Shown: piece after piece, positions 12,074-19,556 of the stretch
How positions within the stretch are numbered: the stretch's first letter is position 1
Layout of the letters: the number at the start of each line of letters is the position of its first letter
Assembly: GCA_003345545.1 (NCBI GenBank)
Contig: PRDH01000044.1
Span: 64,001-128,000, forward strand
Source: Candidatus Thorarchaeota archaeon
GTDB lineage: Archaea; Asgardarchaeota; Thorarchaeia; Thorarchaeales; Thorarchaeaceae
Direction: 5' to 3'
DNA: 64,000 nt
The notes under the pieces: model-generated
Databases searched by the model: none
Told to the model about the DNA's origin: nothing
What the model saw: the letters and a program-made list of their open reading frames with translations, nothing else
Program-made: the position numbers and the translations under genes

Positions 12074-12877
12074 TTATTGTACTAGAATACCCATGCTGAC
12101 AAGAGTGGAGCGTGCCCAATCTGTGAGAATCACTGGCTTTTCACGACCAAAGACCTTGACTGATCTAAGGATGTCAGCTCTCAGGAGGCCGCTCGTGTAG
12201 TACGAAATCAAGCTCTTATCGACATCAAGAACCTTGCTGATCTCTGCCTGTGTTGTCTGCCCGTTCTTCATGCACTCAAAGAGAATCGATCCCACTGTAG
12301 GATTTCGTGAGAGTGCAGCTAGGAGAAGGACTCTATCCTCGGCTGAGAAGTCAGGGGGGAAGATATGACGGACATTGCCATACCTTATTGATACTACCTC
12401 ACGTGCGTCTTCCAAGCTCTTCAGATGATATTGGAGAGCACCCATTGCACATCCCAGGCTCCTGTGAAGCTGACGCAGATGTACACCCGGGTCAGCAGTG
12501 ACTTCCTCCACAATTCTATCTCGGAGTCTTAGAGCTCGACGATCTCTGGTACGCTCGAGCGATATTGTCCCAATAATCAATGCCCACAGCCCTACGTCAG
12601 CGGATGGAGGAGTCCATTGAGTCCAGAAGTCAAGCGTGCCTATGCCAGCCACCAGAAATGAATCAAGAGAGAAATTCATAGTGCCGCTACTGACTATGCT
12701 CAGGGCAAATCCAAGGTCTAAGACAGCCTGATTATTGTTCAATGTTGCGGGTAGAAAAGGAGCAACCGAGTCCGCATCGCCATAACTTGATTCTGACAGA
12801 GCAAACCCAACTACACTCCACGTGATAAGGAGAAAAGAGAGTCCAATGAGGAGTTTTCTAGCGACTTGGCTGCTCAT
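12074..12877 (-). CDS. Membrane-anchored tandem winged-helix transcriptional regulator
   Basis: N-terminal hydrophobic segments, then PGVHLRQLHRSLG...GALQYHL and a second HTH (TQAEISKVL..DKSLISYY). Confidence 0.75.
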   Translation of the reverse strand: MSSQVARKLLIGLSFLLITWSVVGFALSESSYGDADSVAPFLPATLNNNQAVLDLGFALSIVSSGTMNFSLDSFLVAGIGTLDFWTQWTPPSADVGLWALIIGTISLERTRDRRALRLRDRIVEEVTADPGVHLRQLHRSLGCAMGALQYHLKSLEDAREVVSIRYGNVRHIFPPDFSAEDRVLLLAALSRNPTVGSILFECMKNGQTTQAEISKVLDVDKSLISYYTSGLLRADILRSVKVFGREKPVILTDWARSTLVSMGILVQ

Positions 12878-12945: not shown

Positions 12946-13503
12946 CTACGGAGTGACGCCTCGCGCTGGATATGTCAGTGTGATCTTGAAGGTGCATGTA
13001 TCGGCACCGGCAGACATGCAAGTATCCTCACTGACAATCAATTTCTCGTACTCAATTCTATTGAAGTCGGTAAGATACTCCAAGACTGCCTCTATGAAGC
13101 CTTTCAGAAAATAACAGGATGGCTCTTCGCTCTCATAACCGGAGGCATAGGGATTATCGCCAACTTCGATAATTGCTTCCTCGTCAAGCCACAACTTGTA
13201 CAACTTGGCTATTCTGATATCGCCAAAGGGAACGATGAGTGTTTCCAAAGCCATCTTGATGAACTCAACTATTCCTTTGAAATCACCAGGGGGCTTTTGC
13301 TTGCCTACCTTGAAGTACTCTCGTTGGGCCTCAAGACCTGCAAGTCGACCAGCTGAATAGTACAGGTCACGTACACGATCTGGGAACATGACTGCAATAC
13401 GACTGCCAATCTTGTTCCAAGTCTTGGCGAAAAACGCAGACATCAGATCACGATCTTTCAGCCGACCCTGCCACCAAGGAATCACTCTTTCCTCTTTTGA
13501 CAT
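12946..13503 (-). CDS. V4R-domain protein
   Basis: LYYSAGRLAG, NPYA, SCYFLKGFIEA, EDTCMSAGADTCTF. Confidence 0.85.
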   Translation of the reverse strand: MSKEERVIPWWQGRLKDRDLMSAFFAKTWNKIGSRIAVMFPDRVRDLYYSAGRLAGLEAQREYFKVGKQKPPGDFKGIVEFIKMALETLIVPFGDIRIAKLYKLWLDEEAIIEVGDNPYASGYESEEPSCYFLKGFIEAVLEYLTDFNRIEYEKLIVSEDTCMSAGADTCTFKITLTYPARGVTP

Positions 13504-13564
13504 GTGAGAGTCCTCTAATGAACGATTCAGTATGAAACCGCGTTAAGTGCTTTGTTATAATCAG

Positions 13565-14038
13565 CTATGTGAGACGCACATTCCAGACACACATATTTGC
13601 ACCTGTTGCACGCGATTGCTCTTGGAAGACTTTGGCATCCACACCCTTGAACTGGAGTATGGACTCAAGTATACCACTGAAGACTTCGCAGTATCCAAAG
13701 CCACGCATACCCTCTAAATTGACGTCTTGACACCAAACACAGCTTTCGTCAGTGATGCGAACAGACCCACGTGCACTCTTCATATCCACATCATTCGGAC
13801 GTTTGTCGTACAGTGCCTTGTAGACTATCTCGATTAGCTTGGCAACATCCTCGCGCGTCGTGACACTGTCTTTAGTCTTTTCTACGATTTCAGTGTTGAG
13901 ATATATCTGTTGACCAATCTCATGACCCAAGTCACGGAGTTTCTGATTTGCTTCATCGATGTTGGATGTTTCAGAGAGCACACGATCTACGTAGTGCGCA
14001 TAGAGGCTGAGTAAAAGGGGGTTTTCTGTCTTTGGCAT
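13565..14038 (-). CDS. TRAPPC3/Bet3-like V4R-fold protein
   Basis: LLLSLYAHYV...EANQKLRDLGHEIGQQI resembles Bet3 helices; CVWC, YCEVFSGILESIL; start at MPKTEN. Confidence 0.78.
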   Translation of the reverse strand: MPKTENPLLLSLYAHYVDRVLSETSNIDEANQKLRDLGHEIGQQIYLNTEIVEKTKDSVTTREDVAKLIEIVYKALYDKRPNDVDMKSARGSVRITDESCVWCQDVNLEGMRGFGYCEVFSGILESILQFKGVDAKVFQEQSRATGANMCVWNVRLT

Positions 14039-14062
14039 CAGATTCGCACCTATCAATTACTA

Positions 14063-15049
14063 TTAGACAGTCTTGCCAATCATCTTCAGTCCAGCTTTTC
14101 TATACTTGGCAAGGATCTGAACAATCTTCGGGAAGGGAAGGTTCGCTTTCTCAGCTATTTGCTCGGGAGTCAGTCTTCCATCACACATTCTGATGATCTG
14201 GACGTCCTCGCCAGCAACTTTCGAGAGGTCACCCTCAAACCTGGGACACTTCACATACCTTCCTAGTTGAGGACCTGCGCTTGCCACTGAAGGGGCTTGT
14301 GGAACCTCATCCACTCGTGGTACGACGATTATGCCTCTTGTGGCGCTCCACTTAAGAAGATCAATTATCCTATCTGTCGGTTGAAACATCGAATCTGCAA
14401 TGGTGTTCACAGAGTTCCCTCCATCGACCAACATAAGCACGTCAAAGCCAAAATTGCGATAGAGACCCTTCATCTCCTTGTACAATGCAGAATCAAGTGA
14501 CAAAGAATTGCCGTACTCAGGACCTCTTCCGGGGACCGTCGTGGTGGTCACATTGAAGTCATTGACACTCAGTTGCTCTGGCACTTTGATGGGCACAACA
14601 GGAGCAGAACCCTCAGGGGAAGGAGCAGGTAGCGTAGTTGCCTCAACGGAAGCAGCCTTGACAGCAATGCTCTCAAGGACTTGAATATTCAACTCGGAGG
14701 ATTCCTCAAAGTCCTCGGGGGGCGGCGGCAGTTCAATACCTTCAAGAAGACGCAGGACATTCTTGGTCTTGGCAATAGCTAGTCCAAGCTGAAGTTCAGG
14801 AACGTATAGTACTGTCAATATCCAGTTTTCGTCAACAGGGGACAGGACAACGAGGCCTTTTTCGGTATCGATTGTCATTAGGCGAAGGTCCGCCTTGTAT
14901 AGCTTGATGCTGTCTTTCACTCGCGGGAACAGCTCGTCAGGAAATGCAAAACTTACAAATGGCCTGCCAATTTTCGTCATCAGGGAATATCCAAGAACCT
15001 GATCGTCGAATCTCAGTTTGGATAGGGCTTGCTCGAGATTTTTGGACAT
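14063..15049 (-). CDS. Roadblock/LC7-like domain + Pro/Glu linker + tandem winged-helix protein
   Basis: N-terminal alpha-beta-beta-alpha-beta-beta-beta-alpha pattern ending QLGLAI; two DG-x3-4-I-A winged-helix units; paralog of 16917-17864; start at MSKNLEQ. Confidence 0.7.
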   Translation of the reverse strand: MSKNLEQALSKLRFDDQVLGYSLMTKIGRPFVSFAFPDELFPRVKDSIKLYKADLRLMTIDTEKGLVVLSPVDENWILTVLYVPELQLGLAIAKTKNVLRLLEGIELPPPPEDFEESSELNIQVLESIAVKAASVEATTLPAPSPEGSAPVVPIKVPEQLSVNDFNVTTTTVPGRGPEYGNSLSLDSALYKEMKGLYRNFGFDVLMLVDGGNSVNTIADSMFQPTDRIIDLLKWSATRGIIVVPRVDEVPQAPSVASAGPQLGRYVKCPRFEGDLSKVAGEDVQIIRMCDGRLTPEQIAEKANLPFPKIVQILAKYRKAGLKMIGKTV

Positions 15050-15225
15050 AGCACTACACCTCACGGACACTAGCCTGACCGAGAACTGCCCGTACAACCT
15101 CTACTCTCCAAAAGTTTTCTGAAAAGGATTGCGGTTGTGTTGTGGCTTTTCATAGTAAGAATCAATCAAAAACTGTTAAGAGGGGACCACCCACACGCAT
15201 GAAGACACTGTCAAGAGGAGATTCG

Positions 15226-15807
15226 ATGAGAAACCTAGTGGGCGGACTCTTAGGAATAGTCGTGGGTTCATGCGCATTTGTTGGTGTGACTGGACTTCTA
15301 CCGCCACAGCCAGCATACCCAGAACCATTCAATACGATATGGTTCATTCTAGATGGAAGTTGGTCACTTCAGTCCACCATCCAAGGGCTCTTCAATTACC
15401 CAACAGCAGCTGCATATCTGATATCATGGATCATAATCGGAATGATAATCGCACCTTTCTCACGGAAAGGATGGAATACTCTCCGATCGGCTTTATGGGT
15501 CGGAGTCTTTCTTGCCATCTTTGCTTTGATATCCCTGCTTTTGAAGAATCCGTCATTCTGGGATGTTGCCCTGAATCCGATGAGGAACTACGCTCTAGTA
15601 ATCCAGTTTGCCATGTCTATGGTTGCATCTCTCTTTGTCATGATAAGTGCTCTTCCAATTACCGCGGCTGTCGAGATGGTGCGGCGGACCGCAGAGCCAC
15701 CTATTCCAGGAAAGATCGAAACTGTATGCCAATGTGGCGCTGTCTTCAAATCAAATCCACTGATCTGTTCTGAGTGTGGTGCAATTCTCAGGAATTCAGA
15801 CGATTAG
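15226..15807 (+). CDS. Membrane protein (about 4 TM) with C-terminal zinc ribbon
   Basis: Hydrophobic helices; CQCG...CSECG; GAGGAG upstream of ATG 15226. Confidence 0.75.
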   Translation: MRNLVGGLLGIVVGSCAFVGVTGLLPPQPAYPEPFNTIWFILDGSWSLQSTIQGLFNYPTAAAYLISWIIIGMIIAPFSRKGWNTLRSALWVGVFLAIFALISLLLKNPSFWDVALNPMRNYALVIQFAMSMVASLFVMISALPITAAVEMVRRTAEPPIPGKIETVCQCGAVFKSNPLICSECGAILRNSDD

Positions 15808-16322
15808 CGATCCCTAGTAATCCCACCACCAAGAATGGCACCGATGATGCACGCGATGCATGGATAGATAGCTCCCTCTAGAGCAACTTCCATCAAGAGC
15901 AGTGACCCGGGTGCAAAAATGGCTGCGATGTCAAAATCTGGAGAAATCACGAATATGAGGAGCCATGTCAAAAGAGCACCTATGATAGCTGCAAACACAG
16001 CAGCCAAAATAGCAGGCAGGAAGTCCTTTGACATAAGACCAGCAATCAGACCAGCTGCTCCCCATGCGAGAAACATTAGGACCGAGGCACCAGTAGCACC
16101 ATAGCCGACTACGCTTCCAAGACTGGATCCTCCCAAGGCTGATGGATAGAGAATCGTGCCAACAACAGCTATTCTGATTTCGAGGTCACTATTGCTGAGG
16201 AAATCCTGTACGACTGTGGGGGATATTAGATCAGCAGGCATGTAGGTTCCGAATGTCATAACGACGAATGTGATGGCGAATGCAGTTATGAGTCCGAATA
16301 TCGTGCCTAGACCTTGACCCAA
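15804..16322 (-). CDS. Gly/Ala-rich membrane protein (about 4 TM)
   Basis: Hydrophobic helices; W-x3-G-x-I...S-K segment shared with 15226-15807. Confidence 0.75.
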   Translation of the reverse strand: MGQGLGTIFGLITAFAITFVVMTFGTYMPADLISPTVVQDFLSNSDLEIRIAVVGTILYPSALGGSSLGSVVGYGATGASVLMFLAWGAAGLIAGLMSKDFLPAILAAVFAAIIGALLTWLLIFVISPDFDIAAIFAPGSLLLMEVALEGAIYPCIACIIGAILGGGITRDR

Positions 16323-16402
16323 TCATTAGCCTCCATAAATGGTACTTACACGATAGTTTCGCGCTAAGTGTTTTATACCTATTCCGGATGGCCAGTCACA
16401 CA

Positions 16403-16909
16403 CTAATCTCGGAGAACAAGCGTCCAAGTACAGGTTTCATCGCCAACTGCCTTGCAGGACTCCTGATAGCTCTCAGCTGAGAACCCTCGCAGTTTCATGA
16501 CCGCATCGAACACTCCGCTCACAAGCACGCAGTACTGAAGGCCGGGCATGTCTGAAATAGACACACCTTCACAAATAGGACAGATGTCGTCAGTGAATTT
16601 GATTGTTCTCTTATCCTTACTGACTTCAATTCTGGTGAAGAATTGTCCTGAGTTCACCTTATACGCAAGCTGCAATGTTTTTGAGAACGTTGGAAAGTCA
16701 ACTGCATGTTGTCGGATTCTATCGGCATAGTCCATTAGAAGTGTTTCACCAACTCGAAAACCAATGTCCTTCATTTTTCGATTGATCTCTTCAACATTAT
16801 TACTTGTACTCATGACTAGGTTCACAAGCTCTCTATAATTAGCTTGGAAAAGAACCTTCGACACTTTGGTCGTCATGAATCTCCACGCGATTTTCCCTTT
16901 AATACTCAT
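16403..16909 (-). CDS. TRAPPC3/Bet3-like V4R-fold protein
   Basis: KVSKVLFQANYRELV...EEINRKMKDIGFRVGETLLMDY closely follows the Bet3 N-terminal pattern; CPIC, YCVLVSG, ESCKAVGDETC; start at MSIKGK. Confidence 0.82.
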   Translation of the reverse strand: MSIKGKIAWRFMTTKVSKVLFQANYRELVNLVMSTSNNVEEINRKMKDIGFRVGETLLMDYADRIRQHAVDFPTFSKTLQLAYKVNSGQFFTRIEVSKDKRTIKFTDDICPICEGVSISDMPGLQYCVLVSGVFDAVMKLRGFSAESYQESCKAVGDETCTWTLVLRD

Positions 16910-16916
16910 TTTTTTT

Positions 16917-17864
16917 TCAAACTCCTGATTTCTTGTCTGTAAGTACCATTTTAAGAGTCTTCCCACGGTAGGGAAGAATGCTCTGTAAGACTTGGAAGTA
17001 TTGCATACCAAGCTGTGTGGCAATTTCCTGAAGGCTTCGTGTTCCGTCGCAGAGCGCGAGGACGGAGCGATGCTCCTTCTTTGCTTTCTCAATGTTGCCT
17101 TCAAAGAGAGGTATCCCAATTATCTCTTTTTGTCTAGTTTCCTCTGGTTCTGGGCACTGCACATCAACAACCTTCTCTGCCAGACACCATTTAACGATCT
17201 CTTGTACTCGTTCTACCGGTTTTGTTAAAGCTCCAGCTATCGTATAGATCGTCATCTTCTGATCGATAGTGAGAAGAATATCGATAGCAAGGTTGGAGTA
17301 GGCTTTCTTCAACGTGGCATTGAGAGCTGAGTCAAGAGTCATAGCATCTCGATACCTCTCCCCCCGAAGGACAACGCATCCGTGATGCAGCTCTATAGCT
17401 TCTGGGCGGGTCGACGTTTCCTCGACAACAGAGGGTATGGCTTCTACCACAGGAGCCGATGCTGACTCCATGGAAGCCTCAGGCCCGGTTGGCTCAGAAA
17501 CGAGAACCTCATCTGCTTCAACAGGAACCGGAGGCGGTGGAAGTACTACTTGTTCCAAGAGCTCGACAACTGATTTCGCTCTGGAGAGTGCAGTACCAAG
17601 CGTAAGCTCTGGTGTGAAGAGAACAGCAAGAACCCACTGAGGATCCACTCGTGACAAGATGACGCTTCCGTGGCTGGTCATGATATTGACGAGTTTCAGA
17701 CCACCCGCGTGAATCTTGAGCGTGCCCTTGATTTGAGGCACAACCTCGTCTGGAAGTGAGAAGGAAAGGAAAGGCTGGCCATCGTTTGTAATCAACGCAT
17801 AGCCTGTCACGGACTCATCGAATTTTAGCTTCGTGAGTACGCGTTCTAGTTCCAACTGGTTCAC
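16917..17864 (-). CDS. Roadblock/LC7-like domain + linker + tandem winged-helix protein
   Basis: Paralog of 14063-15049 (KLKFDESVTGYAL vs KLRFDDQVLGYSL; PLFEG..CDG vs PRFEG..CDG). Confidence 0.7.
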   Translation of the reverse strand: MNQLELERVLTKLKFDESVTGYALITNDGQPFLSFSLPDEVVPQIKGTLKIHAGGLKLVNIMTSHGSVILSRVDPQWVLAVLFTPELTLGTALSRAKSVVELLEQVVLPPPPVPVEADEVLVSEPTGPEASMESASAPVVEAIPSVVEETSTRPEAIELHHGCVVLRGERYRDAMTLDSALNATLKKAYSNLAIDILLTIDQKMTIYTIAGALTKPVERVQEIVKWCLAEKVVDVQCPEPEETRQKEIIGIPLFEGNIEKAKKEHRSVLALCDGTRSLQEIATQLGMQYFQVLQSILPYRGKTLKMVLTDKKSGV

Positions 17865-19028: not shown

Positions 19029-19478
19029 CTACACTTTCTTGAGTGCGGCTTTGACCATCTGTGTGATGCGATCTTCTGTGATGCCTGTCTTCTCGGCCAC
19101 CTTAGCGATGTCGCAGTATGCAAGGTCAGATATCGTTTCGACTCCAGCAGATGTTAGAAGTTTTGCCTCTTCAGCAGTCACTGACTTGAGCATAGAGAGC
19201 CCATCGACAGATTTCTTTGCACTTGCAGCAGCAGCGCTCTCCTCCTCCGCTAGAGCCTTGATGAATTCTTCAAGGTCCTTCTGATACTGCTTCAATGCTT
19301 CGATATTTTCAGGATATGCAGTCCTTCGTCTCATATCAACAAGGAGACCCATCTTGCGAGCATCGTCCACAGTGAGTCCTGATTGTACAGTTTCTTCAAT
19401 ACTGAATCCGCGGCCACGTCTGAATCGAGCATCAGCTGGTGACTTCACAGCCGGCTCAGCGATAATATCAAAGCTCAT
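19029..19478 (-). CDS. rpl13e: Ribosomal protein eL13 (L13e) with C-terminal helix-hairpin-helix extension
   Basis: RRGRGFSIEE...GL....ARKMGLLVDMRRRT..PENIEALK L13e signature; HhH-like tail; start at MSFDII. Confidence 0.85.
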   Translation of the reverse strand: MSFDIIAEPAVKSPADARFRRGRGFSIEETVQSGLTVDDARKMGLLVDMRRRTAYPENIEALKQYQKDLEEFIKALAEEESAAAASAKKSVDGLSMLKSVTAEEAKLLTSAGVETISDLAYCDIAKVAEKTGITEDRITQMVKAALKKV

Positions 19479-19556
19479 CGATTCTTCCACCTGACTCGGG
19501 CCTCGAGCCTTTGGTCTACTTATCAAGCTTTCGAGATGGACAAAGAAGAGACAAGC

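Follow-up and report, generated by a model that had tools for sequence, protein, structure and literature searches.

In a 64,000-nucleotide stretch of a Candidatus Thorarchaeota archaeon genome (assembly GCA_003345545.1, contig PRDH01000044.1; the whole 64-kb stretch is called the window here, and all coordinates are positions in it), we studied a locus of seven open reading frames, P0001-P0007, that contains two copies of one gene pair. In each copy, or unit, a gene for a scaffold protein with a predicted Roadblock-fold N-terminal domain and winged helices stands next to a gene for a TRAPPC3/Bet3-like protein. It is well supported by our results that the scaffold and Bet3-like genes are a conserved functional pair in Asgard archaea; in the Thorarchaeaceae two diverged copies of the pair persist, together with a V4R gene. 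As mechanism we find it most likely, with a probability of roughly 0.45, that a ligand-binding Bet3-fold dimer docks on a Roadblock dimer serving as a platform for the regulation of small GTPases. Of this mechanism we infer physical binding, heterodimerization, the ligand, the target GTPase and the connection to the membrane. The genes and domains are as follows.

16917-17864, minus strand: P0001, scaffold of unit A, 315 amino acids, with a Roadblock-fold N-terminal domain, a Pro/acidic linker and two winged-helix domains.
16403-16909, minus strand: P0002, TRAPPC3/Bet3-like protein of unit A, 168 amino acids (Pfam TRAPP).
15804-16322, minus strand: P0003, Gly/Ala-rich polytopic membrane protein, 172 amino acids (hydrophobic segments).
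15226-15807, plus strand: P0007, membrane protein with a C-terminal Cys4 zinc ribbon (open reading frame; start uncertain, at 15142, 15200 or 15226).
14063-15049, minus strand: P0004, scaffold of unit B, 328 amino acids, NPRL2-like architecture.
14735-15049, minus strand: P0004 residues 1-105, Roadblock-fold domain (structural model, Foldseek and profile).
14066-14554, minus strand: P0004 residues 166-328, tandem winged-helix region (domain model), with WH1 at about 166-245 and WH2 at about 262-328.
13565-14038, minus strand: P0005, TRAPPC3-like protein of unit B, 157 amino acids, orthologue of Thor-TRAPPC3.
12946-13503, minus strand: P0006, V4R-domain protein, 185 amino acids (Pfam V4R), the third Bet3/V4R-fold gene.
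12074-12877, minus strand: double-HTH (helix-turn-helix) regulator, 267 amino acids (Pfam HTH_HVO_0163_N and HTH_24), whose membership of the module is uncertain.

The seven frames lie where the original prediction had placed them, six on the minus strand and P0007 on the plus strand, and the gaps between scaffold and Bet3-like genes are the 7 nt (16917/16909) and 24 nt (14063/14038) that it had given. The duplication it proposed is real, with paralogues among both the scaffold and the Bet3-like genes: P0001 and P0004 share 34% identity over their full length (E 1e-61), and P0002 and P0005 share 23% (E 2e-25). Its Bet3-like and V4R labels also hold, since P0002 and P0005 both exceed the gathering score of Pfam TRAPP (PF04051, cut-off 27; 30.8 and 41.2 bits, respectively) and P0006 passes that of Pfam V4R (PF02830; 39.5 bits against 31). 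A genome scan found PF04051 genes only in P0002 and P0005, and the scaffold genes likewise number exactly two. Exactly two genes per family in the genome, standing side by side in both pairs, make an arrangement that goes far beyond chance.

The pairing also recurs outside the Thorarchaeaceae, and this recurrence across the phylum weighs more than gene order within the family. Hidden Markov models for the three domains of the scaffold were scanned on 28 loci of other Asgard families, each surrounding a P0002-like gene, and a gene with the same winged helix-turn-helix (wHTH) was found directly beside the Bet3-like gene in 20 of these, which belong to the sister family and eight further families of the GTDB taxonomy; in a ninth further family the wHTH gene lies about 1.5 kb from the Bet3-like gene. 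The wHTH family is rare (85 clusters in 1.84 billion representative proteins). The N-terminal domains of the partners vary, being Roadblock-like in three families and of a different kind, with weak longin/Sybindin signals, in families f4 and f16. A profile of the f4/f16-type domain (A6) retrieved only the MON1 longin from the PDB sequences, at E 0.33, a feature search of the Atlas yielded nothing beyond leads at 0.81-0.82, and Pfam Sybindin and Fuz_longin_1 matches stayed below threshold (Sybindin E 0.03-0.07 in relatives). The longin assignment of these partner domains is thus best treated as a lead, helped by the fusion of longin and TRAPPC3 that Tran et al. report from Heimdall (PMC10933270). 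In genome G033 an f16/f4-type N-domain (E 2e-24 and 9e-22 to the f16 and f4 partners) is fused straight to a Bet3-like domain, and the winged helix is absent; a word-based search for longer fused forms of P0002, which gives weak evidence, had no result.

Two side observations concern these other families. In f12 (L025, L065, L077, L078, L080 and L081) the wHTH partners are short, 159-180 amino acids, and their N-region, with a C-x-x-C near its start, is neither Roadblock-like nor f16/f4-like. Tandem pairs of diverged Bet3-like genes occur in f8, f19 and f7 (L069, L070 of G031, L074 of G063, L028 and L067); these are independent duplications, recalling heterodimers of the TRAPPC3/C6 type.

For the scaffold itself, the evidence is mainly structural. 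An AlphaFold2 model of P0004, built on a 58-sequence alignment and with a mean predicted local distance difference test score (pLDDT) of 81, consists of an N-domain of the order a-b-b-a-b-b-b-a (H-E-E-H-E-E-E-H by DSSP), a disordered Pro/acidic linker and two winged-helix domains, instead of the single wHTH per scaffold that had been expected. The N-domain of the model has the order of the Roadblock/LC7 fold, whose N- and C-terminal helices share one face, and in Foldseek it matched 7f8m, 9jue, 5y3a and 6h5b with template-modeling scores by target of 0.6-0.75 and E values of 2e-6 to 6e-4. These matches comprise Roadblock structures of Thorarchaeota, Loki (MK-D1), LAMTOR2 and MglB, and the profile of the scaffold family in turn matched the Thor Roadblock structures 7F8M (E 0.002) and 7F8F (E 0.006). 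The earlier “roadblock” label therefore stands by model topology, Foldseek and family profile, but not by Pfam Robl_LC7; the genome has 11 canonical Robl_LC7 genes, none of them within the locus (genome scan). Besides that non-significant match, Pfam returned only a near-threshold HTH_47 for the two scaffolds (P0001 E 5e-5). P0001 has weak DUF742 and PqqD matches, and a single-sequence search of the PDB with P0004 gave nothing significant.

The full-length model of P0004 found its best Foldseek matches among the NPRL2/Npr2 chains of GATOR1/SEAC (E 3.6e-7). The helix order of the N-domain is that of Roadblock rather than longin, two folds that are related to each other, and the full-length alignment to NPRL2 chains still covers 356 columns. 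When the C-region was modeled alone (pLDDT 81), all top 11 Foldseek rows were GATOR1/SEAC chains, their identity being assigned from residue numbering, and VIA-align gave Z scores of 7.9-9.9 for such chains as compared with 5.4-7.5 for other matches, generic DNA-binding winged helices lying at 5.4-6. WH1 superposes on NPRL2 residues 163-236 with a root-mean-square deviation (rmsd) of 2.1 A over 74 residues. At the level of the fold, P0004 accordingly has the C-terminal winged helix of the NPRL2 type, and Pfam HTH_NPRL3 is matched by 9 of 59 distant wHTH relatives. The TRAPP or Ragulator likeness first proposed for these proteins needs revision, as their architecture resembles NPRL2/NPRL3 of GATOR1 rather than TRAPP longins or Ragulator subunits.

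The Bet3-like side of the pair is better known. By sequence, P0005 is the orthologue of the crystallized Thor-TRAPPC3 (7YH3 E 2.9e-87 over residues 1-156; 7YH2 E 1e-85), and this orthology assigns to it the Bet3 alpha/beta fold and a dimer through N-terminal helices. The crystal structure has been described as a homodimer like TRAPPC3/C6 with a Cys4 zinc site and an internal hydrophobic cavity, and its authors suggested ligand binding and speculated on ligand transport; mouse TRAPPC3 binds palmitate and the V4R domain of PoxR binds phenols (PMC10933270). Both Bet3-like proteins keep the four cysteines that bind zinc in 7YH3: in P0005 the ligands are C100, C103, C117 and C150, (nearly) invariant in 50 homologues, and P0002 has cysteines at 110, 113, 127, 152 and 160. 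P0002 matches 7YH3 (E 6e-21) as well as TRAPPC3 chains of eukaryotes (E 3e-5), and is nearer than P0005 to the pan-Asgard homologues (32-45% identity). P0006, which has three cysteines (130, 162 and 170), matches the MJ1460 structure 2OSD at E 0.011.

As a separate observation, P0002-type and other Asgard Bet3-like proteins have in common an N-terminal extension, M-G-(I/V)-K-G-x-(I/L)-(A/G)-W (window 16880-16909; M-G/S-x-K-G...W in P0002), that is absent from the crystallized P0005 type. It may be an amphipathic, membrane-binding or regulatory segment.

The link to GTPases comes from gene neighborhoods in two other families. In f16, the partner and Bet3-like genes are preceded immediately upstream, on their own strand, by two to three Ras-family genes in tandem, and a MoxR-VWA gene comes after them. 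Two genera of f7 have a cluster of KaiC, a KaiC-Arf/Ras GTPase fusion, Robl_LC7 (E 6e-11), a KaiC-like gene, the Bet3-like gene and Ras. Since f16 and f7 genomes carry only 10-31 Ras genes, about 0.03-0.04 would be expected within 3 kb on either side. Our own genome has about 20 Ras-family GTPases, and the gene nearest to the locus lies at a distance of about 16 kb on this contig, some 3 kb before the start of the window.

Some details of these clusters may be recorded in their own right. The f16 example in G066 (L063 3244-9029, plus strand) runs from three tandem Ras genes through a longin-like-wHTH gene and the Bet3-like gene to a MoxR AAA+/VWA protein of 659 amino acids. The f7 clusters lie at L066 6043-9760 (minus strand) and L029 4305-8773 (plus strand), and their fusion of KaiC-like and Arf/Ras GTPase domains, 380-420 amino acids long, is an unusual architecture in itself.

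Taken together, the mechanism that we favor would work as follows. The locus would represent two cognate copies of an Asgard-wide two-gene module, in which each Bet3-like dimer takes up a small hydrophobic ligand and pairs up with the neighboring scaffold. The Roadblock domains would dimerize, possibly as an A/B heterodimer like the NPRL2-NPRL3 and LAMTOR pairs, and the resulting platform would regulate one or more Ras-family small GTPases encoded elsewhere in the genome. P0006 would add another ligand-binding subunit to unit B, and the two membrane proteins would be a possible anchor specific to the Thorarchaeaceae. Because of the NPRL2/NPRL3-like architecture, the kept Cys4 zinc site and the cavity of the orthologue, a ligand sensor combined with a GTPase-regulator scaffold fits better than a proto-TRAPP core acting as guanine nucleotide exchange factor. 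A complex prediction for P0004 (A3) with P0005 (A4), run with controls absent, scored 0.04 against a mark of 0.32, which counts neither for nor against binding.

This mechanism should be viewed with caution, as a number of results weigh against it. No Ras-family gene is present in the locus or in the 64-kb window at E <= 1e-10, in agreement with the statement of the original prediction that the locus has no GTPase gene, and GTPase linkage was seen in just 2 of about 12 other families, with one f7 locus (L028) lacking it. The Pfam Robl_LC7 profile (PF03259) gives P0004 an E value of 0.12 and 12.6 bits, the cut-off being 23, and has no match in P0001; neither scaffold matches Pfam NPR2, NPR3 or HTH_NPRL3 at E <= 1. 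What is conserved phylum-wide in the partner is a generic winged helix and not the Roadblock domain, and the A6 N-domain profile is not significantly related to the Thor scaffold (E 0.16). WH2 has a net charge of +6 in P0004 and +4 in the other scaffold, as expected of a DNA binder. The G033 fusion had no counterpart in any other cluster of a 5.8-billion-protein database (word-based search). Finally, gene order within the family is weak evidence of function, because the unrelated L13e, PfkB and ABC genes are equally syntenic.

Several of these points feed the main rival, which we consider unlikely although it comes closest. It holds that the locus encodes a split ligand- or redox-responsive transcription regulator, in which the winged helices bind DNA, the Roadblock domain dimerizes and the V4R/TRAPPC3-fold neighbor senses the effector, as a two-polypeptide counterpart of the HTH-V4R protein MsvR or of the V4R-containing activators PoxR, XylR and DmpR. 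The constancy of the wHTH across Asgard families, the variation of the N-domains and the charge of WH2 are in keeping with such a regulator, as are the matches of distant wHTH relatives to DNA-binding families of the TrmB, MarR and ArsR type and the superposition of WH2 on the HTHs of NarL, AsnC and MarR (rmsd ~2.2 A, Z 5.4-5.9). In PoxR the V4R domain is the effector-binding part, and another HTH regulator lies directly downstream in our locus. However, the whole C-region fits the protein-interaction modules of NPRL2/NPRL3 better than it fits DNA binders (Z 9.9 versus 5.4-6), and WH2 also resembles the peptide-binding PqqD/RRE domains. The G033 fusion retains the longin-like and Bet3-like parts and drops the wHTH, and Ras and Roadblock neighbors such as those in f7 and f16 would be unexpected for a plain transcription factor. 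NCBIfam MsvR does match the Bet3-like and V4R proteins weakly, but at 15-20 bits against a cut-off of 220; with the equivalog score so far short and HTH and V4R on separate proteins, the locus is not of the MsvR type. If this reading were nevertheless true, it would be a caution against taking TRAPP-like or GATOR-like folds in Asgard genomes for trafficking machinery.

The downstream regulator has HTH_HVO_0163_N (E 3e-16) and a MarR-like wHTH (HTH_24, E 3e-6) by Pfam, and is placed between the V4R gene, which it directly follows, and an ABC ATPase/FtsX pair downstream. It is syntenic in the family and was not seen beside the unit of the sister family. The remaining flanks are ordinary, with PfkB kinase, L13e, DUF72 and GlnA on one side and, beyond the regulator and the ABC ATPase/FtsX pair, LysRS on the other. 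The L13e gene (19029-19526, minus strand), syntenic family-wide, encodes an unusual fusion of a ribosomal protein L13e core (Pfam, residues 32-110, E 8e-11) and a helix-hairpin-helix domain (HHH_5, residues 112-161, E 3e-4).

Another rival, improbable in our view, gives the membrane genes the central part: the Bet3-like and V4R cavities would carry a hydrophobic ligand or lipid to or from the two membrane proteins, with the scaffolds as mere adaptors and no GTPase involved. The cavities of the crystallized orthologue and its authors' speculation on transport speak for this, as do the palmitate and phenol ligands of mouse TRAPPC3 and PoxR (PMC10933270). So do the three Bet3/V4R-fold genes at one locus and the two membrane-protein genes found between the units in 16 of 16 further family genomes. 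The membrane genes are absent, though, from the unit of the sister family and from the loci examined in other families and are therefore outside the conserved core, and lipid handling, which would account for the family-specific membrane genes, leaves that core unexplained, as well as the Roadblock/NPRL2-like architecture and the GTPase neighbors seen elsewhere. The original prediction counted membrane proteins as part of the duplicated module; P0003 and P0007 are unrelated to each other. P0003 has no match in Pfam or NCBIfam, and the Atlas yields only Asgard hypothetical clusters; its gene is syntenic in 16 of 16 further family genomes and was not found in the sister family. P0007 (about four hydrophobic segments; Cys 196, 198, 209 and 212) gives a weak rubrerythrin-like zinc-ribbon match and is syntenic family-wide at 30-49% identity. 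Conservation of both is thus confined to one family, in which the flanking housekeeping genes are equally syntenic.

Returning to the module of scaffold and Bet3-like genes, conservation of gene order had been named beforehand as a test that could refute it. The entire locus is syntenic within the genus, and of 16 further genomes drawn from about 14 genera of this GTDB family, 15 keep the full order L13e, PfkB, P0001, P0002, P0003, P0007 (opposite strand), P0004, P0005, P0006, HTH, ABC; the core pair is kept in many Asgard families. All 43 family genomes searched carry a P0002-type gene, and most have both Bet3-like copies about 2.9 kb apart. The exception in order, G094 (L097), lacks P0001 and P0002 together and keeps the membrane genes and unit B. 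In G042 (L089), P0001 appears to be in two pieces and P0002 has an in-frame TAG. The pattern in these two genomes may mean that the genes of unit A were lost or decayed together, or may come from errors of assembly. Of all genes in the locus P0006 is the best conserved, with 71-86% identity between genera. The sister family has a single unit, made up of a scaffold (45% identity to P0004), a Bet3-like gene and a V4R gene (47% to P0006).

In the Bet3-like tree the P0005 type groups with the sister-family copy on a long branch, with support of 98/97. Other Asgard copies fall into a single clade (100/100), and the P0002 type is on short branches; the root is uncertain, the branch of the V4R outgroup being too long. 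These branchings fit a duplication no later than the family split, after which unit B diverged faster. The last rival, that there is no functional unit and that inherited synteny and neutral segmental duplication account for the locus, is suggested by the rigid family synteny reaching as far as the unrelated L13e, PfkB and ABC genes, but is hardly credible given the recurrence of the wHTH/Bet3-like pair in the sister and eight further families in otherwise different contexts, the fusion, the joint loss or disruption in two genomes, and two paralogue pairs kept intact since before the family radiation.

Metatranscriptome contigs from three studies (>=99% identity) cover parts of the HTH gene, P0006, P0004, P0003 and PfkB. 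One contig bridges the P0004/P0005 junction; this is no more than a weak hint, as contigs cannot prove transcription or an operon; none was found over 16403-17864 in three metatranscriptome runs, and contigs cannot show absence of transcription either. A scan for bacterial-type promoters and terminators gave background level only, this type of scan being uninformative for archaea.

Both protein families have already been published, and what is apparently new is their encoding as adjacent pairs. The identical 328-amino-acid P0004 is already deposited as a Thorarchaeota hypothetical protein. Liu et al. described an “NPRL2-like” family in most metagenome-assembled genomes of Thor (10.1101/2020.10.19.343400), which is probably the scaffold family; the text of that preprint makes no mention of TRAPP, V4R or Bet3. 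Tran et al. 2024 state that GTPase genes of MK-D1 are generally not in operons with Roadblock, longin or TRAPPC3 genes (PMC10933270). In the literature searched, which excluded Klinger et al. 2016, the paper of Liu et al. as finally published in Nature and their supplements, we found no description of the pairing, the duplication, the fusion or the GTPase-cluster contexts. Although Thor-TRAPPC3 has been crystallized, it has neither a known function nor a known partner, and the paired scaffold is a testable one; NPRL2-like Asgard proteins have so far been known only as a domain architecture. The pairing hence turns an inventory of eukaryotic signature proteins into a defined, cloneable set of candidate interactors, and the locus offers a test of whether cooperation between Bet3 and longin folds predates eukaryotes.

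Among the closest known systems is Thor-TRAPPC3 (7YH3 and 7YH2; PMC10933270), P0005 being its orthologue with all four zinc cysteines kept and P0002 a paralogue. That paper, however, treats the protein alone, and the passages of it found by a term search do not mention the adjacent scaffold, the second unit or the V4R neighbor. MsvR, PoxR, XylR and DmpR share with the locus a V4R-fold domain with Cys-ligated zinc and a ligand cavity, linked to a winged helix. They differ from it in that the two parts are here on separate polypeptides, in the MsvR scores far under the cut-off, and in their DNA-binding HTHs, the wHTH region of the scaffold being closer to the C-terminal domain of NPRL2/3. A Roadblock-fold platform is common to MglB, Ragulator LAMTOR2/3 and the Streptomyces conservon proteins CvnB-CvnC, and the weak DUF742 match of P0001 (CvnC-type wHTH, E 0.009, below the family cut-off) recalls the combination of Roadblock, wHTH and GTPase in the latter. 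Unlike these systems, our locus has no GTPase or histidine kinase, and Roadblock and wHTH are fused.

As in the eukaryotic TRAPP core, a protein of the Bet3 fold has a partner of the Roadblock/longin fold, here through genetic linkage, and Bet3-fold copies are paralogous, like TRAPPC3/C5/C6; P0002 detects eukaryotic TRAPPC3 by sequence (E 3e-5). The partners are Roadblock plus winged helix, in contrast to the sybindin and sedlin longins of TRAPP (TRAPPC1, C2 and C4), and the V4R-type zinc site kept by our Bet3-like proteins is missing from eukaryotic TRAPPC3. Like NPRL2/NPRL3 of GATOR1/SEACIT, the scaffolds carry a domain of the Roadblock/longin type at the N terminus and winged helices in the C-region, and occur as two paralogues in one genome; NPRL2/NPRL3 are their best structural matches at full length as well as for the C-region by itself. 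They depart from them in the Roadblock topology of the N-domain (N-terminal helix) and in matching neither Pfam NPR2 nor NPR3; no DEPDC5-like gene was seen in the locus, and the Bet3-fold partner found here is one that GATOR1 does not have. One could go further and see in the pair an ancestral Asgard sensor-regulator complex, with a ligand-binding TRAPPC3-fold dimer on a Roadblock/longin-winged-helix dimer controlling GTPases, a precursor logic for TRAPP and for the NPRL2/NPRL3 longin complexes that act as GTPase-activating proteins; in this quite improbable, wider scenario the Thorarchaeal duplication would represent the step from a homomeric to a heteromeric assembly.

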